A DNA stretch of 64,000 bases. Origin: Myxococcota bacterium. Lineage in GTDB: Bacteria; Myxococcota; UBA4151. Within the stretch, counting starts at the first letter, position 1, and each line of letters opens with the position of its first letter. Positions 5,384-40,022 of this stretch are shown here, piece by piece. The notes beneath the pieces were generated by a model. The model had not been told where the DNA came from. It did not search any database and saw nothing but the letters and a program-made list of their open reading frames with translations. Where the stretch lies: contig JBDQPD010000002.1 in assembly GCA_040260805.1 (NCBI GenBank), positions 2,557 to 66,556 of the forward strand. Reading direction: 5' to 3'. Made by a program: the position numbers and the translations under genes.

Positions 5384-5389
5384 TATGGG

Positions 5390-6190
5390 TCAGTTCCCCT
5401 TGGCGACAGGCGCATCAGCCTGCTCTTTCTTTTTCGAACGAGCCGTGTCCTTCATGACATCGACATCATAGCGAACCGTCGGGCGCTCTCGAAGATCGGT
5501 GGTGATCCCACCCCGCTCGAAGCCAACGACCTTGATCTCAGTGAACTTTCCCTCCTCAGCGGAGAAGGTGTAACTTGAACGAATTTTGAAGCGGTACCCC
5601 TTGAGATACGAGAAGATACCGAAGCCATTACCAGCGTAAACCAGGTTCACCGACAACTGGTGATTACCGGGGACGATCTGCCCCTGGAACAGCTCAATTT
5701 CCTTTTGGTTCGCCAGGCTGCCGTCAATATTCGACATCTGCTTGAGCGGCGCTCCATCCAAGAAGTAATGCGCCTCTTGCAGCTTGAACGTCGAGCCCAT
5801 CTCATTACGGTGAACCAGTCGCGCCCTGGCGCCGCTGACCACACCATGCATCACAGCCTCTTGGAGTCGGACCAGGCGAGCCTTGCTCTGATAGATGCGC
5901 ATCTTGAGCTGGTTGACGCGCTCCTCAAGGTCTCGAACCCGCACGTCGTAGGCGTCGCCGTCGTCCTCAGCCTCGTCTTCAGTCTCGTCTTCTTCACTGT
6001 CGTCTTCCGCCACCGCCTGAGGTGCGGCTTGGGGCGCCGGAACGTCTTTGTCTTCGCCGGGCTCTCTGACCTCAGCTTCAGCACTTGCTGCGCCCTCGCT
6101 GGGAGCGTCTTCACCAGGTGCCTGGGCCCACGCCGAAACAGGCATCCCAAGCGCAGCAATAATCAGTACTGCTCGAACCATCGGATTCAT
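5390..6190 (-). CDS. Secreted protein: acidic (D/E-rich) linker, coiled coil, beta-rich C-terminal domain; function unknown
   Basis: Internal start MNPMVRAVLIIAALGMPVSAWA (signal peptide) with GGAGA Shine-Dalgarno 5-9 nt upstream. The ORF-track N-terminal extension is rejected. Confidence 0.55.
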   Translation of the reverse strand: MNPMVRAVLIIAALGMPVSAWAQAPGEDAPSEGAASAEAEVREPGEDKDVPAPQAAPQAVAEDDSEEDETEDEAEDDGDAYDVRVRDLEERVNQLKMRIYQSKARLVRLQEAVMHGVVSGARARLVHRNEMGSTFKLQEAHYFLDGAPLKQMSNIDGSLANQKEIELFQGQIVPGNHQLSVNLVYAGNGFGIFSYLKGYRFKIRSSYTFSAEEGKFTEIKVVGFERGGITTDLRERPTVRYDVDVMKDTARSKKKEQADAPVAKGN

Positions 6191-6274
6191 CGCAATCTCC
6201 AAGCCTCTCACGGTCACTCCGCGCAGGTAACAAAGCCTATTATAGCCCGTCAAACATGTATAGCGGCGATACAC

Positions 6275-6715
6275 TCACGAGAACAGATTCTCGATTTCCT
6301 CGTCGGTAATCGGAGAGCCTATTCGCTGACGCTCACCAGCACCCAAAAGACTACTCAACCGATCCACGAGGGATGCAAGCCGCCAGCGGACCACCCCAAG
6401 GCTACTTCGAGCATCAAAGACAACGACCACCGAGAAACCGGGTTTTACGAGCGCGGTCAGCAGTTTCACCTCACCAGCATCGATGTGAAGACTGCGCACC
6501 TGATCCTTCCCTAAAGGCCGCATCATACCCTGTGCGCTAGCCATCACACCGGCCAGCGAGGCCGCGAAGCGACTGGGGTCCACACGGAATAGATCACCGC
6601 TAATCGCTAGTGATGCACCCGAGCGTTCGCAGAGTTGGACACCAACCGCATGCGACTCCCTGACAAAAGCATCCAGCGCCTCTTGGACCTGTAGTTGGGT
6701 ATGTTCTAAACTCAC
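6275..6715 (-). CDS. Roadblock/LC7-domain protein (MglB/MglC-like small GTPase-associated fold)
   Basis: 146 aa. Alternating hydrophobic pattern and motifs typical of the roadblock fold (LAISGDL...GVMASAQGMM...GEVKLLTALVKPGFSVVVVF). Family call is from recollection of the fold. Confidence 0.5.
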   Translation of the reverse strand: MSLEHTQLQVQEALDAFVRESHAVGVQLCERSGASLAISGDLFRVDPSRFAASLAGVMASAQGMMRPLGKDQVRSLHIDAGEVKLLTALVKPGFSVVVVFDARSSLGVVRWRLASLVDRLSSLLGAGERQRIGSPITDEEIENLFS

Positions 6716-6741
6716 AGGTCCCCCGCCGACAACTCAACGCT

Positions 6742-6828
6742 TGGTACTGGAGGTGGGACTCGAACCCACACGTTGTCTCCAACGCCGGATTTTGAATCCG
6801 GTGCGTCTACCAATTCCGCCACTCCAGC
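6742..6828 (-). tRNA. tRNA-Leu (anticodon CAA)
   Basis: Reverse complement reads GCTGGAG-TGGCGGAATTGGTAGACGC-ACCGGA-TTCAAAA-TCCGG-CGTTGGAGACAACGT-GTGGGTTCGAGTCCCAC-CTCCAGT-ACCA. It has a 7-bp acceptor stem, a long variable arm, a T-loop GTTCGAGTC, and an encoded CCA. Confidence 0.85.
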
Positions 6829-6860
6829 ATCTGCTGTCGTCCACGCCTCCTGTGACTCAA

Positions 6861-7481
6861 TTATCCCCCATCTTGCAAGCGTTCGCTGCCGCCAGACCCT
6901 TGTTCTTTCAGCGCCTCTTCTAGGGCCAGTTGATCCGCTTTGGCTTGGCGCTCTTCTCGCCCCCCAAAAAGCAGCACTAAAATACCTCCGCAGACAATCG
7001 CTGAATCAGCGACGTTGAAGGTCGGAAAGGTATAGCTAGGATTCACACCGCGCAGGTGCCAGTCAATAAAATCAACAACATAGCCGAGTCTCACTCGGTC
7101 GATGAGGTTCCCAAGTGCGCCGCCTAAAATCAACCCGAGGCTGATCTGCATGATGCGCGCTTTAGGGCCTAGCCGCTTAAGCCAGATCAAAACCCCAATA
7201 ATGGCCCCAATACTGACGGTGATCAGCAAGGGCATGCGAATCCACTCAGGAATTGACTGAGTCAGGCTAAACGCAGCGGCTCGGTTCTCGGCGTAGCGAA
7301 ACCAGAACCAAGAATCGACCACCTTGATAAAGCTGTCAGGCGTTCGCGCCCAACCGTACTGAAGCCATGGCTCGGCGCGGCTGAGCCGATCGAGCGCCCA
7401 GAGCTTACTCCATTGATCCAGGACCGTAATCAGAACCAATAAGAACGCAGGGATCGCGTAAATTCGTTTGAGCTTATCCAT
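6861..7481 (-). CDS. lspA: Lipoprotein signal peptidase II
   Basis: 206 aa polytopic membrane protein with conserved LspA motifs (FNVADSAI, LGNLIDR). Confidence 0.85.
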   Translation of the reverse strand: MDKLKRIYAIPAFLLVLITVLDQWSKLWALDRLSRAEPWLQYGWARTPDSFIKVVDSWFWFRYAENRAAAFSLTQSIPEWIRMPLLITVSIGAIIGVLIWLKRLGPKARIMQISLGLILGGALGNLIDRVRLGYVVDFIDWHLRGVNPSYTFPTFNVADSAIVCGGILVLLFGGREERQAKADQLALEEALKEQGSGGSERLQDGG

Positions 7482-10427
7482 CTAGACCTCGGCCGGGTTC
7501 GCGCCTCGGCGCCCGTGGCATTGCTTGTACTTTTTCCCCGAACCGCATGGACAAGGTGCATTGCGGCCCACTTTGGGCTGATCTCGGCGGATGGTCCCCT
7601 CTTCGGTGCCGCCTGCGACGCGACCGGTAAAGGCAGCCGCTTTGCGAGCCCTTCGGCTGTTGCGCTGCTCACCCGCCGTTGACGCCCGACGCTGCTCGTC
7701 GATCAAACGACGCGCACGAGCCCGGCGCTCAGCCTCCTCGCGAGCGACAGCCTCTTCGTCCATCAACTCGACGCGATAGAGCTGCATCAACGCATCGCGA
7801 CTGACCCGGTCAAGCATCGCAGTAAAGAGAATGAACCCTTCTCTTCGATACTCATGCCGGGGGTCTTTCTGACCATAACCTCGAAGGTAAATCCCCTCTT
7901 TGAGGTGATCCATCTGCGTGAGGTGAGCTTTCCAGTGGTGATCAATACTGCGCAGATAAAATGTCTGTGCGAGATCGTCATAGGTGTCGACGGTAAATTC
8001 TGCCCGGCGTTTCTCGTGCTGGCGGTTCACCGCAGCGTAGATGTAGTTGCCGATTTCCATCTGGTAAGCGGGACGGTCCGGCACATCACCGCGGCGGATT
8101 GCGGCTAAACTCACCGGCACATCAAAGACCTTGAAGCACTCAGCCTCTAAGCCCTCCAGCGCCCACTCTGAAGAGGGCTGGGCCTCAGGGCAAAAGCGAG
8201 CGACAGCATCAATGATCGTGCGCTCTGCGCTGTCTTTAATTCGAGTATCAAAATCCTGACCTGCAAGGATCTCGCGTCGGAGCGCATAGAGCGTTCCACG
8301 CTGCTGGTTCATCACGTTGTCCATCTCAAGGACGTTCTTACGAATACCAAAGTTGTAAGCCTCGACGCGTTTTTGAGCGCCTTCGATCTGCCGGCTTACC
8401 AACCGGGAATCGATGACATCATCAGCTTTCATGCCGCCCCAACGCTCCATCATACCTTGGAGCTTCTCGCCCGCGAAACGGCGCATCAAGTCATCCTCTA
8501 GGCTGAGGAAGAACTGAGAGGATCCAGGGTCACCTTGACGGCCAGACCGACCACGAAGCTGATTGTCGATTCGACGACTCTCGTGGCGTTCAGAGCCCAG
8601 AATATGCATCCCGCCGGCAGAAAGGACGTTCTCTTTCTCGCCGGCCATTTCTGCCTCTGCCTTTTCGAGCTCCGCTGCGTATTCCTTGACCAGTCCTGCG
8701 ACAAAGTCGGCGGCTTGCTGGTGCAGCGCAGAGTCTTTAGATTCGGGATAATCCTCCTCGGCCACGGCCTTCGGATCAATCAATTCAGGTCGACCGCTCA
8801 TCCACTTAAAGGTCTCACCTGAAGCGTCTTGGTTTCGGGCATGGATCACGCGCTCACGCGCCAGAAACTCAGGGTTTCCGCCGAGCAAAATATCGGTACC
8901 ACGACCGGCCATGTTGGTAGCGATCGTTACGGCGCCTAAGCGCCCTGCCTGAGCCACGATCTGGCTCTCCTTCGAGTGCTGCTTGGCGTTGAGGACGGTA
9001 TGCTCGACTTTGCGCCGAGCCAAAAATCGACTGAGCACTTCTGAGCGCTCAACCGAAGCCGTACCGACGAGCACCGGCTGACCTTTCGTCTGGCGTCGCT
9101 CGATATCATCACAGATCGCTTCGAATTTTGCGCGCTCAGACAGAAAGATCAGATCAGGCTCGTCCAAACGAGCGATCGGCTTGTTGGTCGGAACGACCAC
9201 CACATCCATCCCGTAGACGCTCATGAACTCTTCGCGCTCGGTTTCAGCCGTGCCGGTCATACCCGAGAGCTTTTCGTACATGCGGAAATAGTTCTGGAAG
9301 GTGATCGTCGCGAGGGTGTGGTTTTCGCGCTGAATACGAACACCCTCTTTCGCCTCGACGGCCTGATGCAAACCATCACTCCAGCGGCGACCGTCCATCA
9401 AACGACCCGTAAACTCATCAACGATCACCACTTCGCCGCCCGTAACGACATAGTCGACATCGCGGCGGTAGACAGCGTGAGCACGAAGAGCCTGGTTGAG
9501 ATGATGGACCATCTCAATATGCTCCATGTCGTACAGATTATTCAGACCTAAAACGCCCTCAACCTGATGCACGCCTGCCTCAGTGAGTGTCACCGAGCGG
9601 CTGCGCTCTTCAACCACGTATTCAACGTCGCGACGCAGTTTCGGGATCAGCCGATCAGCCTTGTGGTAAATCTCTTCGCTGAGTTCAGCGGGACCCGAGA
9701 TGATCAAGGGCGTACGCGCCTCGTCAATCAAGATGGAATCGACCTCATCGACGATACCGTAAGCCAGCGGCCTTTGAACCATCTCGTCGTGAGCAAACTT
9801 CATGTTGTCACGCAGGTAGTCAAAACCGAACTCGTTGTTGGTTCCGTACGTGATGTCTGCGGCGTAGGCATCACGGCGAGTCTCATCGCTAATATCCGCC
9901 GTGATAATCCCGGTCGTTAAGCCGAGCCAGCCGTACAACTTGCCCATCCACTCGGCATCGCGTCGAGCGAGGTAATCATTGACCGTCACCAAGTGCGCGC
10001 CGCGCCCAGCCAGCGCGTTGAGGTAGACCGGCAACGTGGCGACTAAGGTCTTACCTTCACCCGTGCGCATCTCCGCAATTTTGCCTTCATGCAGAACCAT
10101 ACCGCCAGCGAGTTGGACGTCATAGTGCCGCATATCAAGAACACGCTTACCCGCCTCGCGCACCACGGCAAAGGCAGGGGCAAGCAACGAATCAACCGAC
10201 GCTCCGTTTGCGATCTTCTCTTTAAAGACCGCCGTTTGCGCGCGCAGATCGTCATCGCTCAACGCCGCAAACTGCGCTTCGAGTTGATTGATCCGGCTAA
10301 CCGCCGGTCGAAGGCCTTTGATCACGCGATCAGAGCGCGTCCCAAAGACCTTTTCTACATATGCCTTCACCATCGAAAACCCCTCGCCCGAACGACCCGG
10401 ACGCTCCGAAAGCATGGCTAGCGCCAA
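7482..10427 (-). CDS. secA: Preprotein translocase ATPase SecA
   Basis: 981 aa. DEAD-like motor motifs ([13 protein letters not shown]), SecA signature regions, and the C-terminal zinc finger [14 protein letters not shown]. Confidence 0.95.
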
Positions 10428-12415: not shown

Positions 12416-13174
12416 TTGGACTTTGCAACACTAGTCGGTCTGATCGCTGGTATCGGCTTAGTTACCAGCGCTATCGTCACTGGCGGCAATGCCATTATCT
12501 TCGTTAACCCACCCTCGTTGATGATCGTGGTGGGTGGAACGATTTCGGTCATTTTGATGAAATTCCCCGCCGGCGAGGTGTTTAATTCGCTCCGGGTCAT
12601 GAAAAATGCATTCTTTTTCCAAGCGCCCTCCGCCGTTGCAATCATCAATCAGATTATTGAAATGGCCATGCTGGCTCGAAAAGAAGGCGTGCTCGCTCTT
12701 GAAAGCGTTGAGCCCGAAGATGAATTCTTACGCTCAGGTATCCAGCGCGTCGTCGACGGCGTCGACACAGGTCACATCAAAAGAGCGATGAACCAAGAGC
12801 TCGACCAGATGGTGGCTCGTCATGACGTCGGCATTTCGGTCTTTAAAATGGGCGGAGATATCGCCCCAGCCTTCGGCATGATCGGAACCCTGATCGGGCT
12901 GGTGAAGATGCTGTCCTCGATGGAAGATCCGTCAGCGATTGGTCCGGCGATGGCGATCGCTTTGCTGACCACCCTCTATGGCGCTCTGATGGCTAATGTC
13001 TTCTTCTTACCGATCGCCGACAAACTGGCTTTTCGGTCAGAACAAGAGCTCTTCGCTCGAAAATTGATGGTCGATGGCATTCTGGCGATCGGCCGGGGAG
13101 AGACCAACCCCAATCAGCTCAAAACGATGCTCGGCGCCAACCTTGCGCCCAAGGAACGCGAGCAACTGGAGTAG
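12416..13174 (+). CDS. MotA/PomA-family stator proton-channel protein (AglR-like)
   Basis: 252 aa. Near-colinear with Vibrio PomA as I recall it (MDxATLxGLIxG...IVVGG...LMKF...DPxAIGPAMAxALLTTLYGA...PIADKL). Confidence 0.8.
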   Translation: MDFATLVGLIAGIGLVTSAIVTGGNAIIFVNPPSLMIVVGGTISVILMKFPAGEVFNSLRVMKNAFFFQAPSAVAIINQIIEMAMLARKEGVLALESVEPEDEFLRSGIQRVVDGVDTGHIKRAMNQELDQMVARHDVGISVFKMGGDIAPAFGMIGTLIGLVKMLSSMEDPSAIGPAMAIALLTTLYGALMANVFFLPIADKLAFRSEQELFARKLMVDGILAIGRGETNPNQLKTMLGANLAPKEREQLE

Positions 13175-13180
13175 GCGCTG

Positions 13181-14065
13181 ATGGAAGAGGAGCTCCCACC
13201 AGTCCTTGAGGACAGCGAACTCTTCGCTAGTGCTCATGAGACCATCGCAGCTGCGATCGCCGAGCTCGATGATGAGCCGGCTGTCAGTGCCATTCCTGAC
13301 GATGAATTCGACGACGAAGAAGAAAAGATACGCTACAAAAAAGTGTTCATCGGCGCGCCTATGTGGGTGGTGACCTTTGGCGACTTGATGAGTTTGCTGC
13401 TGACCTTCTTTGTGCTGATTCTAAGCTTCTCGACGATGGACCCGGTCAAGTTTAAGATCGTCCGAGGGTCACTAGACACGGCGTTAGGCATTCAAAAGAA
13501 GGTGACGGCGACCAGCGTCCCGCGCGCCGACAACATGATGGCGACCGAATTTAACCGACGCGACTTCAACAAACAGATTGAGAGCGTGCTCAAGAAGGCG
13601 CTGCGCGACACCTTCCCTCCAGGGCAAGAGCCCGGTCGTGTCGAGAAGGTGATCGATATTCGCGGTGAGGTCGTTCGCTTCATCGCATACGACCTCTTTT
13701 TACCGGGCAGCGAAGCGGACGCCCCTAAAGCCAAAACGGTCTATCAGGTGATGGCCGACACCTTGGTCCAGATGGAGGCTCGAATGGAGGTTCGCGGGAT
13801 CGCCCTCGAGCGCTTCTCGCGCGACCTTAGGCAACGCGGTCAAGCACGCGAAGATGGGGTCGTACCCGTTCGAGTCGCGGCTCGACGTGCGGTGATCGCT
13901 AGTCAAAAAGTCCAAAGCCGGCGGAAGCGCGAGATCAGCAGCCGAACGGTCCTACCTGCAGTCACTCCAGGTGTCGCTACACCCGAGCCTCCAGGCGTCG
14001 TGAACATGACCGAATTCGTGTTTCTAGCGCCTGATCGGGTGAGCGCTAAAGCGGGTAATCCATGA
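13181..14065 (+). CDS. MotB/TolR-like stator partner with acidic N-terminal extension and no recognisable peptidoglycan-binding domain
   Basis: TM plug motif APMWVVTFGDLMSLLLTFFVLILSFS is shared with the next gene. The periplasmic part is divergent. Confidence 0.6.
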   Translation: MEEELPPVLEDSELFASAHETIAAAIAELDDEPAVSAIPDDEFDDEEEKIRYKKVFIGAPMWVVTFGDLMSLLLTFFVLILSFSTMDPVKFKIVRGSLDTALGIQKKVTATSVPRADNMMATEFNRRDFNKQIESVLKKALRDTFPPGQEPGRVEKVIDIRGEVVRFIAYDLFLPGSEADAPKAKTVYQVMADTLVQMEARMEVRGIALERFSRDLRQRGQAREDGVVPVRVAARRAVIASQKVQSRRKREISSRTVLPAVTPGVATPEPPGVVNMTEFVFLAPDRVSAKAGNP

Positions 14066-26075: not shown

Positions 26076-27425
26076 TCAGGTCTTAGCGAGCCATTCAGCG
26101 GCTTTACGCCCGTGAATAAGCGCATCCTCCATCGCTGAGTATTCCCAATTGCCGTAGCGCCCAGTGCTGAGGATATTTTGGCTCTTGAGGTAGTCGATTA
26201 AGGTGGTTCGGCTCACCGGGTAATTGGGATCCTGAAGGACATAGGCATTGGGGACATGCTCGACGGTGACGTCCAGCACCGAGTCCACGCCATCGATCAA
26301 GCTCGCCGCCTCAAGCCCAGCGAGACACGCATCGACCTCTTGCTCGACTTGGCGCTCGCCGCGATGAGCAATTTCGACGTAAAAATTACGGGTCTCACCG
26401 TCGGTCATTTTCGGCTCGACCGCCGAGAAAGAGCCGACCCGATAAAAGGGGAACTGCCGTTCAGGGAAATAGGTCCAATGGGGCTGCCCGGCGCCATCCC
26501 AAGGGCCCGCTTGGTCGTGGTTTGAACCCTTTGCTAGGACGTCCAAATGACTGACCGTTGTGCTGCGCAGTAGGCTCCGAGCATGCGCCACCTCGGCGGG
26601 CAATTCGCCACCACGAGCGCAAGCGTCGATGAGCGCGGTCAAAGGCATGGTCGAGACCAGCTTGTGGTAAGCGATCGTCTCACCATCTTGAGTGGTCGCT
26701 CGGCGGTTGCGCACATCGATCGACGCGACCGGGCGCTCGCATTCGATCTCGATCGACAAGGTCCTCTTAATGGCTTGCGCTAAGCCCTCAATGCCGCCCC
26801 CGTCATCAGGGTATAAAAAGTGTGTGTTGTACCCCAGCGCTTCGCGAGACGCCCCGACCGCTCCAGCGATCACGTCTTCGACTTGTGGGATCGGAATATA
26901 GCTCGACTCGCACCAAGCCGCCGAGAGCTCACGAGGATGAACCGTCCAGATTTTCTCGTTGTACGGAAACATAAAGTGTTCAGCGATACCGGCACCAAAC
27001 TTTTGCTCGATCCAATCCGCAAAAGTCTTTGGCTCGGGCCTGGTCGGCGCCTGTGGACCAAGCTCAACGTCGTGCAAACGAGCATCAACGAAGCCCTGAA
27101 GACACGCTCGCGCCACCGCAGGAGGGAGACCGTAGGTGTTCGCTTGAAAAGGGTACAAGGTGTAGACGCCTGAGCTAAAAATTCGGGCTTTACGGTTGTG
27201 TTTGACCAGGTTCAAACCCGGCAGCTGATGGACCCATTCCTGGATCTGCGCATCGCGCAGGTGCAGCCAATGGCCGGTGATGTCGAACCGAGCCCCATCT
27301 CGCTGACGAGTTCGCGCTTTGCCGCCAATGAAAGGCGTCGCCTCAAGCACCCTCAAATCACCTTGTGCGTGCGCCGCAGTCGACAATCCGGTCAGCCCGG
27401 CACCGAGCACTAAATTCTGCGTCAT
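26076..27425 (-). CDS. FAD-dependent oxidoreductase, UDP-galactopyranose-mutase-like / amine-oxidase fold
   Basis: N-terminal GAGLTGLS...E...GG dinucleotide-binding motif. Internal FPYNEKIWTVHPRELSAAW and C-terminal GRYGNWEYSAMEDALIHG resemble Glf/UGM as recalled. Confidence 0.55.
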   Translation of the reverse strand: MTQNLVLGAGLTGLSTAAHAQGDLRVLEATPFIGGKARTRQRDGARFDITGHWLHLRDAQIQEWVHQLPGLNLVKHNRKARIFSSGVYTLYPFQANTYGLPPAVARACLQGFVDARLHDVELGPQAPTRPEPKTFADWIEQKFGAGIAEHFMFPYNEKIWTVHPRELSAAWCESSYIPIPQVEDVIAGAVGASREALGYNTHFLYPDDGGGIEGLAQAIKRTLSIEIECERPVASIDVRNRRATTQDGETIAYHKLVSTMPLTALIDACARGGELPAEVAHARSLLRSTTVSHLDVLAKGSNHDQAGPWDGAGQPHWTYFPERQFPFYRVGSFSAVEPKMTDGETRNFYVEIAHRGERQVEQEVDACLAGLEAASLIDGVDSVLDVTVEHVPNAYVLQDPNYPVSRTTLIDYLKSQNILSTGRYGNWEYSAMEDALIHGRKAAEWLAKT

Positions 27426-27431
27426 GTGGAC

Positions 27432-29390
27432 CTACGCAACCCGTCGACGTCGACGTAGGATCGCAGCAAAGAGCAGCCACTCCAAACCGATCCCTGTAGC
27501 CGAACCACAAGCGCAACCGACTCCAGTCAGACCTGACTGCCCCCCGGGCGCGTTGTCTGGATCGTAGGTGCATACACCGGGTTCACCGACCGAGACATCA
27601 CAGCGATGCTCGACAGGGCACCAGCGGTTGTTTCCACACCACGTCGTGCATCGGCCATCGAGGCAGATACCGTGCTCGCATTCGCCGGCACCGCCGCAGC
27701 TGTCGCCTACAGAGCCTGTCCCGGTATCACCGCCCTCGCGGCACATCCCATTGCCCATCTCATCGATCACGCAGCCTTGACCGTCAGGGCATTGGTAATG
27801 ACCAAGTCTTGGGTCACAACCCCGACCACAACGACCGACGCCGTCAAAATAGCCACAGGCGCCGCTTTGGCAGTGTGAATCATCACCGCAGCGCCCATCG
27901 GGGCCTTGAGGTGAGCCCGGCTCAAAGGGTGAGCATTGATCTGCTTCACAGATCTGCCCTGCCGGACAATCTAGGTCGTCAATACAACTTGAGCCGACAT
28001 AAGGGGCACATACGCCGCCGCCATCACGAGTCGGCTGACAGTCCATCCCTCCGCTGCAATCGGCTCTCGTTTCGCAGTTTTGGAAGCAACGTCTCGAGCC
28101 ATCATAATAGATACACGTTGTCCCCTCCTCGCAGGGTTTGTCCTCACAGATCTCACCCAGTCGAGCGAAGCGTCGGTCGGCGCAAACTCGGACCGTATCA
28201 ACGCCGGGTCGCGTCACCTCAATACACTCTTGATCCTCGCCGCAGCTGGCGTCGCTGGTACAGGTTCGAGCGCAATTCCAACCCCGACCGGTCGGTGCGC
28301 ATTCGAGGCCCTCAGCGCAGGCGTAATAGCTGTCGCACGCTTCACCCTCTTGCGTGTCACCGCCATCGATGCACAGCGACATCCGGCTGTTGTTTTGACC
28401 GTCAAAGGTACGGCAGGTGGTTCCTTGAGGACAGGCCGGATCGCCGCGCTCACAGGTTTGATAACAGCGCGCATCGTTTTCATCGCCCAAGCAAAGCAGC
28501 CCTTCTTGGCAGGGTCTGCCCACACAGGCTTCACCGCGCCCTGCGGCGTCGGCCTGTGCGTCCGCTCGCAAGCAGACATTATTGCCGCCGGTTTGACCGC
28601 ACTCGTAACCCGTAGGGCAGGTGCCGCAGGTTTGGCTGCAGTACTGGCTGTTGCGGTCCGTCACGCAGATCCCTGAGTCGCAGTCGCTGTTGCGCGTGCA
28701 ACCCCAACCTAAGCCGCCGCGTTGTCCTGGGTAAATCCCACAGATTCCGTCGGTGTCGTCCTGACGCAGATAGCGAAAGGGGTAGCCGACATAAGAAGGA
28801 GTCATCACCGCATCAACGGTACAGTTCTCGCACGGATGATCGAGCCCTAACGCGTGACCCATCTCATGAACAGCGATGCTCTCGATATCGATATGTCGAC
28901 CGCGATCAGCGGTACCCCATCGGCTCCGGTTGCTCGGATAGTTGACCTCATTGAACTGAACATCAGAGTCGACGATATAGCAGTCCCGGTAAGGCCTGCT
29001 GCCCTGTCCGCTGCACGCGCCGCGGCGCCCCGAGAACGACGTCATCGTGATCCCTAGGGTTCCCGCTCCGTAGGGCCAATCATTGGCATTGCTCTGAAAC
29101 CAGACGTTGTTGGTGTTGTCGTTCGTTGCGCGCGGCGTCCCGCGGACGTCGCCAAGGTCTTGACCAGCGATCAAAGAGCAGCTGGCGTCAGTCCAGCTCT
29201 GCAGGCCTGCGCGCATGGCGCGCACGTCCGAGCCGTCGTTGATCCCCGAACGAGTGCTCCCCGACGTATCAATACGAAAGCCGATCGTATTCGTTTGGGT
29301 CAAGTTCCACTTGCCGATCTGACCTTGCCAAGCCTGAGCGGCGCTCGGGATCAACATCAAACTACACAAAGGGAGCACCCAGCGAATCAT
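27432..29390 (-). CDS. Secreted M10 (matrixin)-like zinc metalloprotease with long Cys-rich C-terminal modules and MYXO-CTERM-like tail
   Basis: HEMGHALGLDHP plus Met-turn AVMTPSY. More than 10 Cys-rich EGF-like modules. C-terminus GVGCACGSATGIGLEWLLFAAILRRRRRVA (GC motif, TM helix, Arg cluster). Confidence 0.75.
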   Translation of the reverse strand: MIRWVLPLCSLMLIPSAAQAWQGQIGKWNLTQTNTIGFRIDTSGSTRSGINDGSDVRAMRAGLQSWTDASCSLIAGQDLGDVRGTPRATNDNTNNVWFQSNANDWPYGAGTLGITMTSFSGRRGACSGQGSRPYRDCYIVDSDVQFNEVNYPSNRSRWGTADRGRHIDIESIAVHEMGHALGLDHPCENCTVDAVMTPSYVGYPFRYLRQDDTDGICGIYPGQRGGLGWGCTRNSDCDSGICVTDRNSQYCSQTCGTCPTGYECGQTGGNNVCLRADAQADAAGRGEACVGRPCQEGLLCLGDENDARCYQTCERGDPACPQGTTCRTFDGQNNSRMSLCIDGGDTQEGEACDSYYACAEGLECAPTGRGWNCARTCTSDASCGEDQECIEVTRPGVDTVRVCADRRFARLGEICEDKPCEEGTTCIYYDGSRRCFQNCETRADCSGGMDCQPTRDGGGVCAPYVGSSCIDDLDCPAGQICEADQCSPFEPGSPQGPDGRCGDDSHCQSGACGYFDGVGRCGRGCDPRLGHYQCPDGQGCVIDEMGNGMCREGGDTGTGSVGDSCGGAGECEHGICLDGRCTTWCGNNRWCPVEHRCDVSVGEPGVCTYDPDNAPGGQSGLTGVGCACGSATGIGLEWLLFAAILRRRRRVA

Positions 29391-29941
29391 CGTTGCGCTC
29401 CCGCAAACCGGCGAACCTCAGCGGCGAGTTGCGTCAACGGCATATGCGCTGGCTCTGGCGCCTCGCCCGGTCGAATCACGCCGTCTTTGCCTGGCTCGGC
29501 AAAAGCCACGTTGCCAAACTCTTCCACAGCGAAGGCGCCTTGCGCGTTGCGCTCCACCACATACCGACCGAGCCCAACACCGACCTGCACAAAGCGATTC
29601 TGGAATGCTGATAAGAACAAGACGAGCTCTTCGCCGGTCTTAAACTTGCTGGTCCCTGGTACACTTTGGATCAGGTCACCAAGCTCGCCGCCCATCTGCA
29701 AGAGCGTCAACGCGCTGCCCGCCTGAACCTTTCCTTTGAAGGCTTCAATCACCTCAAGCTCAATCAAGGTCGACAGCGCCCCCGGGCGCTCTTCAACGGT
29801 TCGAATAGTGCCCACACGAACCTGCACCACCAATTGGCTCATATCGGTCATCTGAGCCCGATTGAGCTTCATCACCACCGTTGCCTGGGCGGTCTGCGCC
29901 CCAGCGAACATCGTCAGCGCACACACTATCATCAATCGCAT
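29387..29941 (-). CDS. Small secreted hypothetical protein (184 aa) sandwiched between the two metalloproteases
   Basis: Start MRLMIVCALTMFAGAQTAQA (signal peptide) with GAGAGGAAG SD. ATGA overlap with the downstream protease start. No Cys-rich modules. Confidence 0.55.
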   Translation of the reverse strand: MRLMIVCALTMFAGAQTAQATVVMKLNRAQMTDMSQLVVQVRVGTIRTVEERPGALSTLIELEVIEAFKGKVQAGSALTLLQMGGELGDLIQSVPGTSKFKTGEELVLFLSAFQNRFVQVGVGLGRYVVERNAQGAFAVEEFGNVAFAEPGKDGVIRPGEAPEPAHMPLTQLAAEVRRFAGAQR

Positions 29942-31278
29942 CGTTTTCTTCCTCTCACTGCCAGCAGCCCAAAACACACCAACCAAGGCATCAAAGCGGG
30001 CGCCGAAGCACTTGAACATCCACATCCACCAGACGAGTCACCCTGCTCACCGCACCGGGTCAAGTCCACCGTATCCACCACACAGTAGCCGCCACTGCAA
30101 AGCGTGCCACTCGGACAATCTGCGGTCACACCACAGACCTGCGTACACAGGCTGCGTTCGACGCCGCGGATGCTCACCGGCTCACAGCGCCCGGAGGCGC
30201 ACAGATCAGCCTGAGGCAAAAAGTTATCGGGTCGAACGCATTGTGCGCCGATCGGTAAATATTCGCCATTGTTTGCGCCGCCCATCAAGCTCACGCAGTA
30301 CCCATCACCCTGAACCGCTAAACGACAGCTCATACCGCCAGGGCAAGGGTCATCCATGGCGCAACGCCGGCTGCATTTACCTTGGCGGCATAAGCCTGAG
30401 GCGCATTCACAATTTTTACCGCAGTTCTCCGCCAGCCTTAAGCTGGCCTGGTCAACTTCGGCGCGCACGCCAGGGTAGAGCTCACAGATCCCCGAGACAT
30501 CGGAAGGGCGAGGACCGATCTCCGGGTGCCCAGACCAAGCGGGCGCCATGATCGCGTCGCTACCGGACGGGGTGTGGCCTAGACCGGTCAGGTGACCAAA
30601 CTCATGCAACATCACCGAAAAGACATCGACCGCATCACCCCCGGTCGTCGGCGTCGACCAACGATGGTGAACCCCATTCATCAAAATATCGGAGTCCGTG
30701 CTTTCATCACCGCGCATCGAGGTCACCGTCACACCGAGAGTAGAAGGACCGCCTGGAAAGCCCGTCTCCATCCAAAAGAACTTGTTTCGCCCATCAGCGG
30801 CTTGATCCCAAGTGGCGAAATCAGGCTCTTGCTCTTCCGCTTCAAAAACAGTGCAGGGCACCAAGCGCCAACCGCGAATCGCCGAGCGCATGGCATCCAC
30901 GGCGAGGCTTGGGTCGTCAAAGTCTGCACTTCCAGCGGGGTCGATCGAATAAAAAAGCCGACCAACGCAGGTTTCATCTCGACAATAACCGTCAACGCAG
31001 CGTCTGTTGTTGCTGCACTCAGCCTCAGCCTGACAGGCACCATACCGGCCAGTCATTCGGCACGACTGACCGCCCGCGCAGCCACCAACGCACGACTCAC
31101 CCAGCAGCGACCAACGCCAGTTCGACCTCAGAAAGGCAGGTTGAGGGCCACACGAGGCATCAGGCCAACAGCCATGAGCTGGACCACATAAGCCCTCGGT
31201 ACAGGGCTGCTGAGCGGCCACAGCGGCGCCAGCCAACAACACACCAACCGACATGATCAGGACACGGAGCAAAGACAC
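29932..31278 (-). CDS. Secreted M10 (matrixin)-like zinc metalloprotease, Cys-rich, MYXO-CTERM-like tail
   Basis: HEFGHLTGLGHT...AIMAP. Signal peptide. C-terminus GGCGCSSASAPALMPWLVCFGLLAVRGRKRCD. Confidence 0.75.
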   Translation of the reverse strand: MSLLRVLIMSVGVLLAGAAVAAQQPCTEGLCGPAHGCWPDASCGPQPAFLRSNWRWSLLGESCVGGCAGGQSCRMTGRYGACQAEAECSNNRRCVDGYCRDETCVGRLFYSIDPAGSADFDDPSLAVDAMRSAIRGWRLVPCTVFEAEEQEPDFATWDQAADGRNKFFWMETGFPGGPSTLGVTVTSMRGDESTDSDILMNGVHHRWSTPTTGGDAVDVFSVMLHEFGHLTGLGHTPSGSDAIMAPAWSGHPEIGPRPSDVSGICELYPGVRAEVDQASLRLAENCGKNCECASGLCRQGKCSRRCAMDDPCPGGMSCRLAVQGDGYCVSLMGGANNGEYLPIGAQCVRPDNFLPQADLCASGRCEPVSIRGVERSLCTQVCGVTADCPSGTLCSGGYCVVDTVDLTRCGEQGDSSGGCGCSSASAPALMPWLVCFGLLAVRGRKRCD

Positions 31279-35773: not shown

Positions 35774-37090
35774 ATGAGCGAGCGTATCGCGTTGGTTGAA
35801 GACGACCCTGGAGGTCGCAAGGTAGCGGCGGCTATGCTCGGTCGATCGGGTATGGACGTGGTCGCCTTCGCCAGCGCCGAAGACTTTTTACGGGTTCGGC
35901 CTGAGGTTTCGGTGGTGCTCACCGATCTGATGATGCCTGGGATCGACGGCATCGAATTGATGAAACAGCTCAAAGCGCAGCACGGCGATGACATCGAGGT
36001 CGTCCTCATCACCGCCTACGCAACGGCTGACGTGGCGGCTAAGGCGATGGCTGAGGGCGCCTTTCACTTTCTCACCAAACCGCTCGATCCTCAGCTTTTG
36101 GTCGAGACAGCAAAGCGAGCCGCTGAGCGGGTTCGACTGCGGAGCCGACTCGCTCGACTCGAAGACCGCCTAGCGACGTATGAAAGCCAAGAAATTGTAG
36201 GCGCCTCGAAAGCTATTGGAGAGCTCAAAGATCAATTGGCTCGACTCGCTCAAGCGGATCTCCCCGTCTTGGTCACCGGCGCCTCAGGGTCCGGTAAAGA
36301 GCTGGCAGCGAGGGCACTTCATCTGGGCAGTGAGCGGCGTGAAGAGCCTTTCGTTGCGGTCAACTGTGCCGCGCTGCCCGCTCAGCTTTTAGAGTCCGAA
36401 CTTTTTGGTCATTTACGAGGGGCATTCACGGGCGCTGAAACCCGCCGAAAGGGTCGGTTTCTTGAGGCACACGGCGGCACCTTATTCCTGGATGAAATTG
36501 GCGAAATGCCCTTGGGCTTGCAGGCAAAGCTCTTGCGCGTCCTTGAGCGTGGTGAGGTCACACCCTTAGGGGCTGACAAGCCACAGACCGTGAATGTTCG
36601 GCTAGTAGCCGCTACCAATCGAACCGATCTCGCCAGCGTGATGCGCGACGACCTTTATTATCGTCTTGCGGGGGCAGTGGTCGATGTACCCACGCTCGCT
36701 CAGCGGCGAGACGATGTGCCCATTTTGGTCGCTCATTTTTTATCTCGGCACGGATTAAGAGCGCCAAAACTTGGGGCTAAAGCACTAGAAGTGCTGCAAA
36801 ACTACAGCTGGCCGGGTAATGTTCGCGAGCTCGCGCACACTTGCGACCGACTCACGGCACTGTATCCGGGCGAGGACTTAGAAACCCTACCTGAAGCGCT
36901 TGATAACGATGCGAGTCCGGCGCGGCGCGGCTTGATTATCGATCCAAAATGGTCACTCGATGACATTCAAACCAAGGTCATCGAGTGGACGCTTGAACGC
37001 TTCGAGGGTAACCGGGCAGAAACGGCGAAGCATCTAGGTATTGGGGTAAGGACCCTTTACCGCCGGCTCAAGGACGACCCACCGGCCTGA
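35774..37090 (+). CDS. Sigma-54-dependent response regulator (NtrC family: REC + AAA+ + HTH)
   Basis: Receiver Asp (VLTDLMMPG), AAA+ Walker A GASGSGKE, GAFTGA sigma-54 contact motif, C-terminal Fis-type HTH. Start ATG 35774 with GAGGAA SD. Confidence 0.85.
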   Translation: MSERIALVEDDPGGRKVAAAMLGRSGMDVVAFASAEDFLRVRPEVSVVLTDLMMPGIDGIELMKQLKAQHGDDIEVVLITAYATADVAAKAMAEGAFHFLTKPLDPQLLVETAKRAAERVRLRSRLARLEDRLATYESQEIVGASKAIGELKDQLARLAQADLPVLVTGASGSGKELAARALHLGSERREEPFVAVNCAALPAQLLESELFGHLRGAFTGAETRRKGRFLEAHGGTLFLDEIGEMPLGLQAKLLRVLERGEVTPLGADKPQTVNVRLVAATNRTDLASVMRDDLYYRLAGAVVDVPTLAQRRDDVPILVAHFLSRHGLRAPKLGAKALEVLQNYSWPGNVRELAHTCDRLTALYPGEDLETLPEALDNDASPARRGLIIDPKWSLDDIQTKVIEWTLERFEGNRAETAKHLGIGVRTLYRRLKDDPPA

Positions 37091-39920
37091 GCTCGCCAAA
37101 AGTTCGAAGCGATGATGCTCGCTGACGCGCCATCGTGTTAAACAGATCAGAACCCCAGCACCACACGCTGCCATCGCTTCGTCGAGCGCAAGCGTGTAAC
37201 GCACCGATAGCCACCTCCTCGGCTTGGGTTAGCCCCTCAACCGAGACCGGGCTTCGCCGATGGTTCACACCCGCGTCACCGCAGACGCCAAAGTCGTTGC
37301 GACCCCAACACGACACCTCGCCGGCGCCATCAACAGCGCAGGTGTTGTATTCACCAGCGGCGATCTTCTCGATCCCGTCAAGTGACTCAACCGGAACCGG
37401 TCGCCTTCTGCTCGTTCCGGTTCCATCGCCAAGCTGCCCCAACGCATTGTAGCCCCAACAAAAAACACGACCATCGCGACCCAGACCGCAGTGATGATAA
37501 CGCCCTGACGTGAGCGTAGTAATCGATGACAGGTCCGCTGTAGGGCCGGCGGTCCAGCGTGATTGATTTTGTCCATCACCGAGCTCGCCAGCGCTGTTGT
37601 TACCCCAGCAACTGACCGTTCCATCGGTGTGCAATGCGCAGGTCGAGCGTTGCCCAGCGCTGATGGACGTTACGTCCACAAGATCGCGCACGGCGGTGGG
37701 TGACTGGCGACGTCTATTGGTGCCATCGCCGAGGTTACCAAAGGCATTATATCCCCAGCAGACGGCCGTCTGATCAACCGTCAGCGCACAGCTAAAGTCG
37801 CGCCCGAAACCAAACCGATCAAAGGGGCGCAAAGCCGGCACCTCGACGGCTCGGTCTCGACTGCTCACGGTGCCATCGCCGAGCTGTCCATTGGTGTTGA
37901 GACCCCAGCAAAATACGCTCCCATTTTGGGCCTTACCGCAGGTGTGCGCGCCGCCAGATGCTAAGGTGACGATGGGCTGATCGAGCCCAGCAACAGCTCG
38001 CGCTTCACCGACGCCCAACCCCAGCGCGCCGAGCGAGCCGTAATAGTTTCGTCCCCAACATGAGACCTCGCCTTCGCTGTCCAAGCTGCAGGTGTGAAAC
38101 AAAGACGAGGCGATCTGAATCGAGCCCGAGAGACCATGGACGGGCTCGGCGATTTGACCAAACCCACCTTTAGCGTCGCTGTGCGTTTCACCCCAGCGGT
38201 CGAGGCCCCAACACAACCGAGAACCGCTTTGGGTGGTGACGCAGCTGTGGTCGTAGCCCAGCGCCAGGGTCTCAACGCCAGCGATCTGGAAACTGCGCAC
38301 GGGCACACGACGACTCGAACGACTTCCATCGCCGAGCTGTGCATAGGCGTTGCCGCCCCAACAAAACACTTCGGAAGAGGCGCTGAACGCGCAGCTATGG
38401 CTCAAGCCAGCTCCGACCCCAATCATCGGAGGCAACCCGACCACACGCACCGGTCGACGTTGATTCGCCACGCTGCCGTTACCGAGCTTACCTTCGGCGC
38501 CTTGTCCCCAGCACCACACCGCCCCGTCGCCTGTGACGGCGCAGGTGTGATGGGCTCCTGCCGCAAGACTCGTGACACCGCTCAAGCCGACGACGTCACG
38601 CGCCACGCGCGAGTTCGCTGTCCGGTCGTCGCCGAGCTGCCCTAAATCGCCTCGACCCCAGCAGCGCACGGTGCCATCGCTCAGCAAAACACAGCTGTGT
38701 TCGGCGCCTAAAACCATATCCTCAATCACATCGATTCCGTGCACCGGAACCGGCCAGACCATGTACTGATTTCCGGAGTTCGGGTCACCGAGCTGCCCGC
38801 GGTTGTTGTGGCCCCAGCAAAGGGCGTTTCCGTTGGCCATGATCGCGCAGCTGTGGTGGTAGCCACAGCGAACCGACTGAGCACCTTCGGGCAACAAAAC
38901 CTGTTGCGGCTGTGGCTGCGCGTCGTTTCGTCCCATGCCGAGTTGCCCGAGATCATTTTTCCCAAAGCAATGCACTTCTCCATCGGCTTCACGAGCGCAA
39001 GTGTGCGCTTGTCCCAGGCAAAAATCGGTCACGTCCGCCAGCGCTTCGATCGACTGAGGACGGCGCGAGCCTTCGGACGGACCAATACCCAGCTGACCAT
39101 CAACCCCGCGGCCCCAGCAGGCTAAAACGCCCTCTTCATTCAACTGACACGCGTGTTCATAGCCTGCTTGGACACGCCCTGGCTGGCCCTCTCGCTGGCA
39201 GTCTACCCCGCAACCGTCGCCCGGTAGGTCGTTGCCGTCATCGCAACCCTCGACGCCTTCCATCACAAAAGAGTCACCACATTCAGCTTGAGCGCAATCC
39301 GCGAGACACTCGTCAGTGTTCGAGTCGTTGCCGTCATCGCAGGCTTCCTCGCCAGCCCAGACCACCCCATCGCCGCAGCGCGCCTGAGCGCACAATCCGG
39401 TGCAGTCATCTTCATCGGTCTCATTACCATCATCGCAGGCCTCGACGCCTTCGTGGACGAAGCCGTCACCGCAAGCGGCGAGTCGACAATCTTGCAGGCA
39501 CTCATCGCTGCTTGACGCGTTGCCGTCATCGCATGCTTCGACGCCTGCGTGCACAAAACCGTCACCGCAGCGAGCGGCTAAACAGGCTGAGGTGCACTCA
39601 TCATCATCGCTTGAGTTGCCATCGTCGCAGACCTCGCGAAGCTGCATCACACCGTCGCCGCATGAAGCGAGCACACAAGTGCTCAGGCAGTTGTCCGTAT
39701 CGTCTGCGTTCCCATCGTCGCAGCCTTCACCGGCCTGGACCAGACCATCACCGCAAGCCGCAAGTTGACACGCATTAGAGCAAGCGTCGTTGGCGACCAG
39801 GTTGCCGTCATCGCAGGTTTCGCCAGGGTCGATTTCTCCGTTGCCGCAAAGCAATGCTGCGCTGTTGCTACCGCATCCAGCAACACCAACCAAAACGCCT
39901 ATCGCCAACCATTTATGCAT
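37068..39920 (-). CDS. Lipoprotein with six N-terminal myxo-type Cys-rich repeats (CGDG...CDDGN) followed by ~10 RCC1 beta-propeller repeats
   Basis: Lipobox VAGCGS after start MHKWLAIG. Repeats ACGDGxVxxGExCDDGNxxxxDxC occur six times. RCC1 blades (CWGxNxxGQLGxG) follow. 23-nt convergent overlap with the regulator gene. Confidence 0.75.
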   Translation of the reverse strand: MHKWLAIGVLVGVAGCGSNSAALLCGNGEIDPGETCDDGNLVANDACSNACQLAACGDGLVQAGEGCDDGNADDTDNCLSTCVLASCGDGVMQLREVCDDGNSSDDDECTSACLAARCGDGFVHAGVEACDDGNASSSDECLQDCRLAACGDGFVHEGVEACDDGNETDEDDCTGLCAQARCGDGVVWAGEEACDDGNDSNTDECLADCAQAECGDSFVMEGVEGCDDGNDLPGDGCGVDCQREGQPGRVQAGYEHACQLNEEGVLACWGRGVDGQLGIGPSEGSRRPQSIEALADVTDFCLGQAHTCAREADGEVHCFGKNDLGQLGMGRNDAQPQPQQVLLPEGAQSVRCGYHHSCAIMANGNALCWGHNNRGQLGDPNSGNQYMVWPVPVHGIDVIEDMVLGAEHSCVLLSDGTVRCWGRGDLGQLGDDRTANSRVARDVVGLSGVTSLAAGAHHTCAVTGDGAVWCWGQGAEGKLGNGSVANQRRPVRVVGLPPMIGVGAGLSHSCAFSASSEVFCWGGNAYAQLGDGSRSSRRVPVRSFQIAGVETLALGYDHSCVTTQSGSRLCWGLDRWGETHSDAKGGFGQIAEPVHGLSGSIQIASSLFHTCSLDSEGEVSCWGRNYYGSLGALGLGVGEARAVAGLDQPIVTLASGGAHTCGKAQNGSVFCWGLNTNGQLGDGTVSSRDRAVEVPALRPFDRFGFGRDFSCALTVDQTAVCWGYNAFGNLGDGTNRRRQSPTAVRDLVDVTSISAGQRSTCALHTDGTVSCWGNNSAGELGDGQNQSRWTAGPTADLSSITTLTSGRYHHCGLGRDGRVFCWGYNALGQLGDGTGTSRRRPVPVESLDGIEKIAAGEYNTCAVDGAGEVSCWGRNDFGVCGDAGVNHRRSPVSVEGLTQAEEVAIGALHACARRSDGSVWCWGSDLFNTMARQRASSLRTFGELRPVGRP
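39180..39880. repeat. Intragenic tandem DNA repeats (~90-nt unit, about 6 copies) encoding the Cys-rich modules of the RCC1 lipoprotein
   Basis: Recurrent gttgccgtcatcgcaggc...tcgacgcc units seen directly in the sequence. Confidence 0.6.
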
Positions 39921-40022
39921 ACTTCGTCCAAGCCCTTGGAAGTCGCTAGTTTGAGCGAACTTGGATCGGCGATCAAGCCGCGCCGCTGTTGGTGATCTGG
40001 GCCCCAAAACCTTAGACCGGTG

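Follow-up and report, generated by a model that had tools for sequence, protein, structure and literature searches.

A 64,000-nucleotide stretch of a Myxococcota genome (GenBank assembly GCA_040260805.1, contig JBDQPD010000002.1, positions 2,557 to 66,556; hereafter the window) carries a unit of three overlapping genes in which two matrixin-like zinc proteases, here called A and C, bracket a small secreted protein, B. We propose that B probably serves as an inhibitor or latency factor of the linked proteases, in the manner of the metazoan tissue inhibitors of metalloproteinases (TIMPs). A built-in inhibitor is the favored reading because the fold predicted for B is TIMP-like and because members of its family adjoin, or are fused to, proteases of this kind in many bacteria. 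The three genes, all on the reverse strand, had been outlined in a preliminary description of this DNA, and its coordinates and its 10-nt and ATGA overlaps proved exact to the base (Table 1). An AGGAAG sequence sits 8 nt upstream of the B start codon, at the A/B junction. A longer reading of B is possible, with a 212-amino-acid (aa) upstream extension of the open reading frame (ORF); the start was placed at the ATG at 29941 because homologues begin at a conserved M-R-L.

Protein B carries a type I signal peptide that has no lipobox cysteine at its cleavage site. Its single cysteine lies within that signal peptide, leaving the mature protein cysteine-free, in keeping with the earlier picture of a small secreted middle protein devoid of cysteine modules. 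Pfam returned no match to B at E<=1, the TIMP, NTR and Inh-family models included, and neither NCBIfam nor PHROG returned any. A word-indexed search recovered close relatives in 18 cluster representatives, and a HMMER profile search extended the family further: clustered at 50% identity, it numbered 4,851 representatives at E<=1e-3, of which 707 also passed E<=1e-10. Most of the 150 top-scoring representatives listed have a signal peptide and a length of 180-230 aa, and the listed members mostly have zero or very few cysteines. Those tested likewise matched nothing in Pfam, NCBIfam or PHROG. Where names are attached they read 'hypothetical protein', from Myxococcota, Myxococcales, Myxococcaceae or 'Deltaproteobacteria' metagenome-assembled genomes (MAGs). 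The family therefore appears to be unnamed, with no Pfam or NCBIfam model and no paper on it found in our literature searches, which also returned no paper mentioning MXAN_2676 to MXAN_2679.

The structure of B was modeled with AlphaFold from a diverse alignment of 148 sequences, and this model (mean predicted local distance difference test score, pLDDT, 95.6; predicted template-modeling score, pTM, 0.87) replaced a poor one built from 17 close homologues (pLDDT 57.6). When the model was compared against the PDB with Foldseek, ranks 1-31 were all occupied by chains of the NTR/TIMP fold, at probabilities of 0.97-1.00 (mostly 1.00), and unrelated folds entered the list at rank 32 with low probability. 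The top match was agrin NtA ('structurally related to N-TIMP-1'; E=7.8e-4, target TM-score 0.61). Further matches included the C345C domain of C3/C3b, the PCOLCE NTR domain and TIMP-2 (E=6e-3), along with TIMP-1 and N-TIMP-3 chains taken from complexes with matrix metalloproteinases (MMPs) and TACE.

The N-terminus of mature B is likewise placed as in TIMPs, inhibitors that lose their activity when extended at the N-terminus. Across 148 diverse family members the predicted signal-peptidase site, A18-x-A20 with cleavage before T21, is conserved at 83%, 89% and 88%; T21 ranks 11th of 184 columns in conservation, and 147 of the 148 sequences place the first core strand equally far from it. In hhalign comparisons of the family with the N-domains of TIMP-1, TIMP-2 and TIMP-3, residues 10-51 of mature B aligned with TIMP residues 10-54 (P=4.7e-4 to 7.3e-4), so that B and TIMP share their numbering from residue 1. 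Of the three TIMP sequences aligned here, those of TIMP-2 and TIMP-3 were confirmed by comparison with PDB entries. The aligned region contains a strand motif that reads [SA]15-D16-V-V-V-[HR]-[AG]-[RK]-V in the B family versus [AS]15-D16-[VLI]-V-I-R-A-K in TIMPs. This likeness of motif and register, drawn from sequence comparison, is suggestive of homology, short of proof. Genuine common descent of the B family and the metazoan TIMP/NTR module, as opposed to convergence on an oligonucleotide/oligosaccharide-binding (OB) fold, is a tentative proposition, and we consider it somewhat doubtful.

The arrangement seen in the window recurs in its relatives. A protease/B/protease triad with overlapping junctions was found in three of them (a JGI contig and the loci L003 and L004), with B identities of 54-67%. 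The A/B overlap measures 10 nt in both L003 and L004 and 1 nt in the JGI contig, and the B/C overlap is 4 nt in L004 and 1 nt in L003 and the JGI contig. In the two long contigs (JGI and L003) the flanks are shared as well, with ArgJ and RseP on one side and an oxidase, a GT2 glycosyltransferase and two M16 peptidases on the other. In the short contig L001, B follows the last part of a MYXO-CTERM protein and precedes the first part of a C-type protease. One additional contig, L002 (ENA ERZ28548058, which carries P0018), was excluded from the synteny comparison: its coverage is nominally 0.11, it is frameshifted and broken into numerous short ORFs, and it has the look of a syntenic region assembled with many errors. 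The unit is thus conserved in orthologous loci, with the middle gene kept in all three triads. The broader expectation that protease, small protein and protease form a standing triad fared less well: it recurs in relatives, but the order is specific to this lineage, and elsewhere one B generally accompanies one to three proteases.

To gauge this linkage across the family we assembled 57 metagenomic loci from a subfamily alignment, together with loci from genome scans and contig look-ups (L066 and L067 were added later), a sample biased toward one B subfamily and toward sequences that its two peptide patterns could match. In 66 sequences, 35 of the 2,138 ORFs encode the metzincin motif HExxHxxGxxH, and 32 of these are fused to, or lie within 100 nt of, a same-strand B-family ORF; the remaining three are second proteases of those same clusters. 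Where a locus carries a single, non-tandem B domain and at least 2 kb of sequence on each side, a protease is present in 13 of 16 cases. In short contigs, a MYXO-CTERM-like tail often ends just upstream of B. The gene order varies: protease-B-protease in the window, its clade and L020; protease-B in L005, L006, L012, L015 and L019; and B-protease in many loci. Loci in which B precedes two or three proteases hold genuine members (313-372 bits) of the curated family NF041905, and in L022, L027 and L066 the gene immediately following that of the B family encodes an NF041905 member. The simplest alternative, that B is an unrelated periplasmic protein caught between two duplicated protease genes, does not account for a linkage of 32 in 35 that persists through every one of these orders and through gene fusion; meaningless adjacency is extremely improbable and is effectively already refuted by the linkage and the fusions.

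The partners of B also indicate what the linkage follows. Proteases with 1-7 cysteines and no MYXO-CTERM-like tail accompany B in L024, L036, L038, L040 and L042. Because some partners thus lack the tail and have few cysteines, the linkage tracks the catalytic domain and not the tail or the cysteine repeats. A role for B as a servant of the MYXO-CTERM pathway was considered and rejected, since many partner proteases are without that tail. True B-protease fusions occur in L026, L033, L039 and L043 (two copies), and in these B is N-terminal, following the signal peptide and preceding the catalytic domain. Because B directly follows the signal peptide, in the position of a prodomain, the fusions retain its free N-terminus. 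Separately, three in-frame ORFs (P0049, L020 3184-4974 and L056 3180-5573) run from a surface protein through a transmembrane (TM)/Arg tail and a signal-peptide-like segment into B with no stop between. The surface proteins of P0049 and L020 are proteases, and that of L056 lacks HExxH. These ORFs could be polyproteins, for which a double membrane pass is topologically feasible, or they could reflect an internal start or assembly errors.

The prodomain-like place of B in the fusions would also suit a chaperone acting in trans, which would fold or escort the catalytic domains, or hand them over for lipidation, to the myxosortase or to the type II secretion system (T2SS), and would later be degraded by the protease. 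Consistent with this idea, the gene overlaps suggest matched stoichiometry, and the TIMP-like Tim protein of Listeria is cut by its metzincin (PMC8235301). On the other hand, partners without MYXO-CTERM tails speak against a sorting-specific role, and the fold predicted for B belongs with inhibitors or binding modules, unlike the known foldase prodomains of proteases. The two ideas also overlap, as many prodomains both chaperone and inhibit. We regard a purely chaperone-like role as unlikely, if a shade less so than the adaptor role considered below. The preliminary description had offered three roles for the middle protein, namely a cognate inhibitor, a prodomain-like chaperone and a substrate adaptor, and it is the cognate-inhibitor or prodomain-like role that the TIMP/NTR-like fold, the metzincin linkage and the N-terminal fusions back.

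Inspection of the proteases themselves bore out the view that they are paralogous M10-like zinc enzymes with Met-turns. Both exceed the cut-off of 24 bits for the matrixin model PF00413 (A, 39.5 bits; C, 38.5 bits), with an alignment that covers the C-terminal half of the model only, and they are 29% identical to one another across 238 aa (E=8e-23). Classical MMPs have a serine after the third histidine of the zinc motif and a cysteine-switch propeptide. Unlike these, A has threonine and C has proline after the third histidine, and C is without a propeptide: its mature start, AQA followed by WQGQIGKWN..., is the catalytic domain itself (compare the 'PKW' start of MMPs). Protease A carries an 85-aa cysteine-rich segment ahead of its catalytic domain. 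The two proteins contain 36 (A) and 61 (C) cysteines arranged as repeated modules, which give weak, sub-threshold matches to TIGR04201, the myxobacterial Cys-rich repeat (20.5 bits for C versus a cut-off of 25), and to DUF7107. Against NF041905, A scored 29.2 and C 37.8 bits versus a cut-off of 250, which places both below membership.

At their extreme C-termini both proteases carry a GC(G/A)C motif, a hydrophobic helix and an Arg/Lys cluster, reading GGCGCSS...WLVCFGLLAVRGRKRCD in A and GVGCACGS...LEWLLFAAILRRRRRVA in C. The C tail is conserved in L003 and L004; the glutamate inside its helix is atypical, yet it too is kept in both. The TIGR03382 model (cut-off 15.85) scored the A tail alone at 21.3 bits, the whole of A at 15.6 and C at 12.5-14.2 bits; TIGR03901.2 (cut-off 20) gave 14.5 bits for the A tail and no match for the C tail. 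The author of the MYXO-CTERM model has noted that a domain as short as 34 residues is hard to capture with one hidden Markov model, that the model is lineage-sensitive and that curatorial review is needed (10.1101/2023.06.07.544157), and the closest genomic loci to the window are Myxococcota MAGs. As judged from their sequences, the two tails are probable MYXO-CTERM signals. Thus the Cys motif, TM helix and Arg cluster that had suggested MYXO-CTERM-type tails are all present, while neither tail reaches the cut-off of TIGR03901.2. MYXO-CTERM signals are processed by the myxosortase MrtX and send proteins to the cell surface (PMC11980579). No myxosortase-like (CPBP) ORF was found within the 64-kb window, where the sole four-TM candidate, of about 250 aa, was rejected as a PomA/MotA-like stator protein. 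It is worth noting that on L066, a 1.58-Mb metagenomic contig, a B-family gene and three NF041905 metalloproteases lie 1.6 kb from a gene for a CPBP/Rce1-like intramembrane protease (2628-3383 on the reverse strand, with 5001-8387 on the forward strand). Its best NCBIfam match is MrtA at a sub-cut-off 67 bits, with no MrtX match among those listed, and it may or may not be a myxosortase.

Taken as a whole, the operon would encode two cell-surface zinc endopeptidases together with their own inhibitor. Each protease would consist of a matrixin-like head, a disulfide-rich stalk and a MYXO-CTERM-type signal that, by analogy with TraA, would be lipidated at its cysteine, cut by a myxosortase and exported to the surface through the type II system. 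Because it has no propeptide, protease C should be active once folded in the periplasm. Protein B would be exported by Sec and remain unanchored, and cleavage by signal peptidase between AxA and T would yield a free Thr1 N-terminus. B would then bind like a wedge in each of the two catalytic domains, in the manner of a TIMP or APRin, keeping the enzymes latent until they exit the periplasm or B is removed, and the overlapping start and stop codons would couple the amounts of inhibitor and protease. We infer in this way the binding, inhibition, zinc chelation, localization and timing of release alike. Lacking both a lipobox and a sorting tail, B is expected to be soluble in the periplasm or secreted; as the proteases would be lipid-anchored and exported, B could shield the envelope during their transit. 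Protection of the envelope has been reported for other bacterial metzincin inhibitors (PMC8235301, PMC9890683), and co-transcribed inhibitors of bacterial metzincins have precedents in potempin A-karilysin (PMC9890683) and Listeria Mtz-Tim (PMC8235301).

Several observations weigh against an inhibitory role. The TM-scores of the Foldseek matches are modest (0.31-0.45 query-normalized, up to 0.62 target-normalized), and the sequence likeness to TIMP is weak, at an hhalign probability of 26-33%. The Pfam TIMP and NTR models stay unmatched, and a profile search of PDB sequences found no TIMP or NTR chain, returning chance-level matches only (a viral glycoprotein signal peptide at E 0.27 and SSB OB folds at E 0.4-1.3). 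The Cys1-Cys70 and Cys3-Cys99 disulfides that stiffen the N-terminal ridge of TIMPs have no counterpart in B, because mature B is without cysteines. In L007 and L008 a B homologue follows an aminotransferase gene and has no protease neighbor, and among low-GC loci with tandem B domains a protease is present in only three of nine assessable cases (six of nine without). The TIMP-like Tim of Listeria is a substrate of its metzincin and not a proven inhibitor (PMC8235301). Finally, an NTR module need not be an inhibitor: agrin NtA and the NTR of the procollagen C-proteinase enhancer (PCPE) are binding modules.

The last point leads to a further alternative, in which B is a non-inhibitory NTR-like module that binds a substrate, matrix or polysaccharide, or enhances activity by docking the proteases on their targets. 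Agrin NtA and the procollagen C-proteinase enhancer NTR act so, agrin NtA and PCOLCE NTR are the best Foldseek matches of B, and the family members that lack a protease neighbor would fit such a role too. A binding module would leave unexplained, however, the conserved signal-peptidase site, the conservation of residue +1 and the fixed N-terminal spacing. It also sits poorly with the fusions, in which B is always N-terminal and prodomain-like, and with protease C, which has no other latency device. We therefore judge an adaptor or enhancer role unlikely, and continue to favor a TIMP-like inhibitor or latency factor.

Table 1. Features of the protease A/B/protease C unit and the adjoining gene, numbered by position in the window
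Feature	Position	Strand	Extent	Remarks
Protease A gene	29932..31278	(-)	448 aa	GTG start; ORF list, PF00413; signal peptide, N-terminal Cys-rich segment, matrixin-like catalytic domain, Cys-rich stalk, MYXO-CTERM-like tail
A catalytic domain	30469..30957	(-)	aa 108-270	PF00413
A zinc motif	30571-30606	(-)	aa 225-236	HEFGHLTGLGH; HEFGHLTGLGHT
A Met-turn	30541-30555	(-)		AIMAP
A tail	29935..30030	(-)		GGCGCSS...LVCFGLLAVRGRKRCD
A stop / B start overlap	29932..29941	(-)	10 nt	ATGCGATTGA
Gene B	29387..29941	(-)	184 aa	ATG at 29941
B Sec signal peptide	29882-29941	(-)	aa 1-20	
Mature B	29390-29881	(-)	164 aa	Predicted TIMP/NTR-like OB fold and C-terminal helix
B stop / C start overlap	29387..29390	(-)	4 nt	ATGA
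Protease C gene	27432..29390	(-)	652 aa	ORF list, PF00413; signal peptide, catalytic domain directly after, long Cys-rich stalk, MYXO-CTERM-like tail
C catalytic domain	28725..29330	(-)	aa 21-222	PF00413
C zinc motif	28833-28868	(-)	aa 175-186	HEMGHALGLDH; HEMGHALGLDHP
C Met-turn	28797-28811	(-)		AVMTP
C tail	27435..27530	(-)		GVGCACGSATGIGLEWLLFAAILRRRRRVA
FAD amine-oxidase-like gene	26076..27425	(-)		PRK07208-like; begins 6 nt past C stop

The unit is embedded among ordinary chromosomal genes, including those for ArgJ, RseP, SecA, MutS2, MetH, RecQ and fumarase. The FAD amine-oxidase-like gene that follows protease C is probably co-transcribed with it in this genome. The same gene lies on the strand of C in L003 and L004 (with a 4-nt overlap with C in L004) and on the opposite strand in the JGI contig; because it is inverted in this more distant contig, we place it outside the conserved module. 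Elsewhere in the window, the PomA/MotA-like stator gene (12416-13174, forward strand; NF006527 at 289 bits, under the cut-off of 341) is followed by a gene encoding a MotB plug domain (13181-14065, forward strand). This pair (12416-14065) is of the flagellar type or of a gliding (AglR-like) type, in a host whose closest relatives are Myxococcota MAGs. The gene at 37068-40007 on the reverse strand encodes a protein of 979 aa that combines Cys-rich DUF4215 repeats with a large propeller of RCC1 repeats; it is probably secreted and of myxobacterial type, and a simple pattern search detected no MYXO-CTERM-like tail in it.

Operons pairing a protease with its inhibitor are of a known kind, and one predicted pair of a metzincin and a TIMP-like protein is known, in Listeria (PMC8235301). 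What appears to be new for the B family is its size and spread in Myxococcota, its high-confidence NTR/TIMP-like model, an N-terminus in the same register as that of TIMPs, the occurrence of metzincin fusions and its coupling to curated myxosortase-dependent metalloproteases. In the literature TIMPs are presented as a family of metazoans (PMC9409782). The Listeria work came upon no previous report of bacterial proteins resembling TIMPs (PMC8235301), and a 2025 study of MMP origins and inter-domain transfer leaves TIMPs and protein inhibitors unmentioned (PMC12587646). If B and TIMPs are indeed homologous, the matrixin-TIMP pair would be a co-inherited bacterial module, represented by thousands of sequence clusters in operons and N-terminal fusions, and MMPs and their inhibitors would have arisen together in bacteria or moved together between bacteria and early animals. 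The hypothesis is specific and has consequences for how the MMP-TIMP system arose. An inhibitor would add an independent marker to scenarios of MMP origin and horizontal transfer. It also offers a concrete, cheap explanation to pursue for the latency of prodomain-less, surface-anchored myxobacterial proteases. B would further add a functional partner to the 'myxosortase-dependent metalloproteases' curated by NCBI, and would provide a disulfide-free TIMP-like scaffold for the study or engineering of MMP inhibition.

The suggestion that such a protease/unknown/protease unit is not a described system holds for the B family, which appears unnamed, and needs tempering in that NF041905 is already curated and that protease/inhibitor pairs, Listeria Mtz-Tim included, are known (PMC8235301). 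The closest curated counterpart of the proteases is NF041905 itself, the 'myxosortase-dependent metalloprotease, MXAN_2677/MXAN_2678 family', which likewise comprises adjacent paralogous MYXO-CTERM metalloproteases in Myxococcota. Compared with it, A and C are far longer and have Cys-rich stalks, and the curated family omits the B partner. The described pairs most like B and its proteases are Listeria Mtz-Tim, potempin A-karilysin and AprA-AprI. Among bacterial inhibitors, APRin/Inh/SmaPI (MEROPS I38), which accompany AprA-type proteases, are similar to B in that the gene for a periplasmic inhibitor lies beside that of a secreted metzincin and the inhibitor protects the cell. APRin inserts its N-terminal segment into the active-site cleft, where it ligates the zinc, and its fold is an eight-stranded barrel. 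That fold differs from the one predicted for B, which has no Pfam sequence match. Despite being unlike TIMPs in structure, the I38 inhibitor engages its metzincin similarly (PMC8235301). Another parallel is potempin A (PotA) of Tannerella forsythia, a co-transcribed OB-fold inhibitor of the MMP-like (M10) protease karilysin at the cell envelope (PMC9890683). In contrast to B, PotA is a 98-residue outer-membrane lipoprotein that inhibits by its loops (the 'bilobal' mechanism) and not by its N-terminus (PMC9890683), and it was not among the Foldseek matches of the B model.

The Mtz-Tim pair of Listeria monocytogenes, in which the gene of a secreted metzincin immediately precedes that of a protein judged TIMP-like by Phyre2 prediction (PMC8235301), is kept across Gram-positive bacteria (PMC8235301). 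Tim differs from B in being a phage-associated lipoprotein that Mtz cuts about 50 residues from its N-terminus (PMC8235301), whereas B lacks a lipobox and is chromosomal, among housekeeping genes; Tim and B were compared here by description. A somewhat similar arrangement was observed in low-GC loci, where a 332-aa lipoprotein with two tandem B-like domains is encoded directly downstream of a 629-aa protease (L048 2966-5885, forward strand; also L058 and L059). The protease carries the motif HELGHALGLGD (HExxHxxGxxD), and its gene is missing from six otherwise similar low-GC loci. This lipoprotein/protease pair may be of the same kind as Mtz-Tim and a possible link to it; a tblastn search of phage genomes with the tandem-domain lipoprotein, aimed at Listeria mtz-tim prophages, gave no match.

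Metazoan TIMPs (MEROPS I35) and NTR modules are also among the nearest counterparts of B. The differences are these: TIMP N-domains have three disulfides, one of which includes Cys1, whereas B has no cysteines and Thr as residue 1; B lacks the TIMP C-terminal domain and has extra beta-hairpins and one C-terminal helix instead; and B is bacterial, is encoded in an operon with its proteases and matches neither the Pfam TIMP model (PF00965) nor NTR. Both have an OB barrel plus helix as their fold, predicted in the case of B, and both have matrixin-type metzincins as partners. In both, a free N-terminus is generated by removal of the signal peptide, at a predicted site in B; the first strand begins equally far from residue 1, and a similar strand motif, [SA]-D-V-V-[VI]-[HR]-A-[RK], follows.

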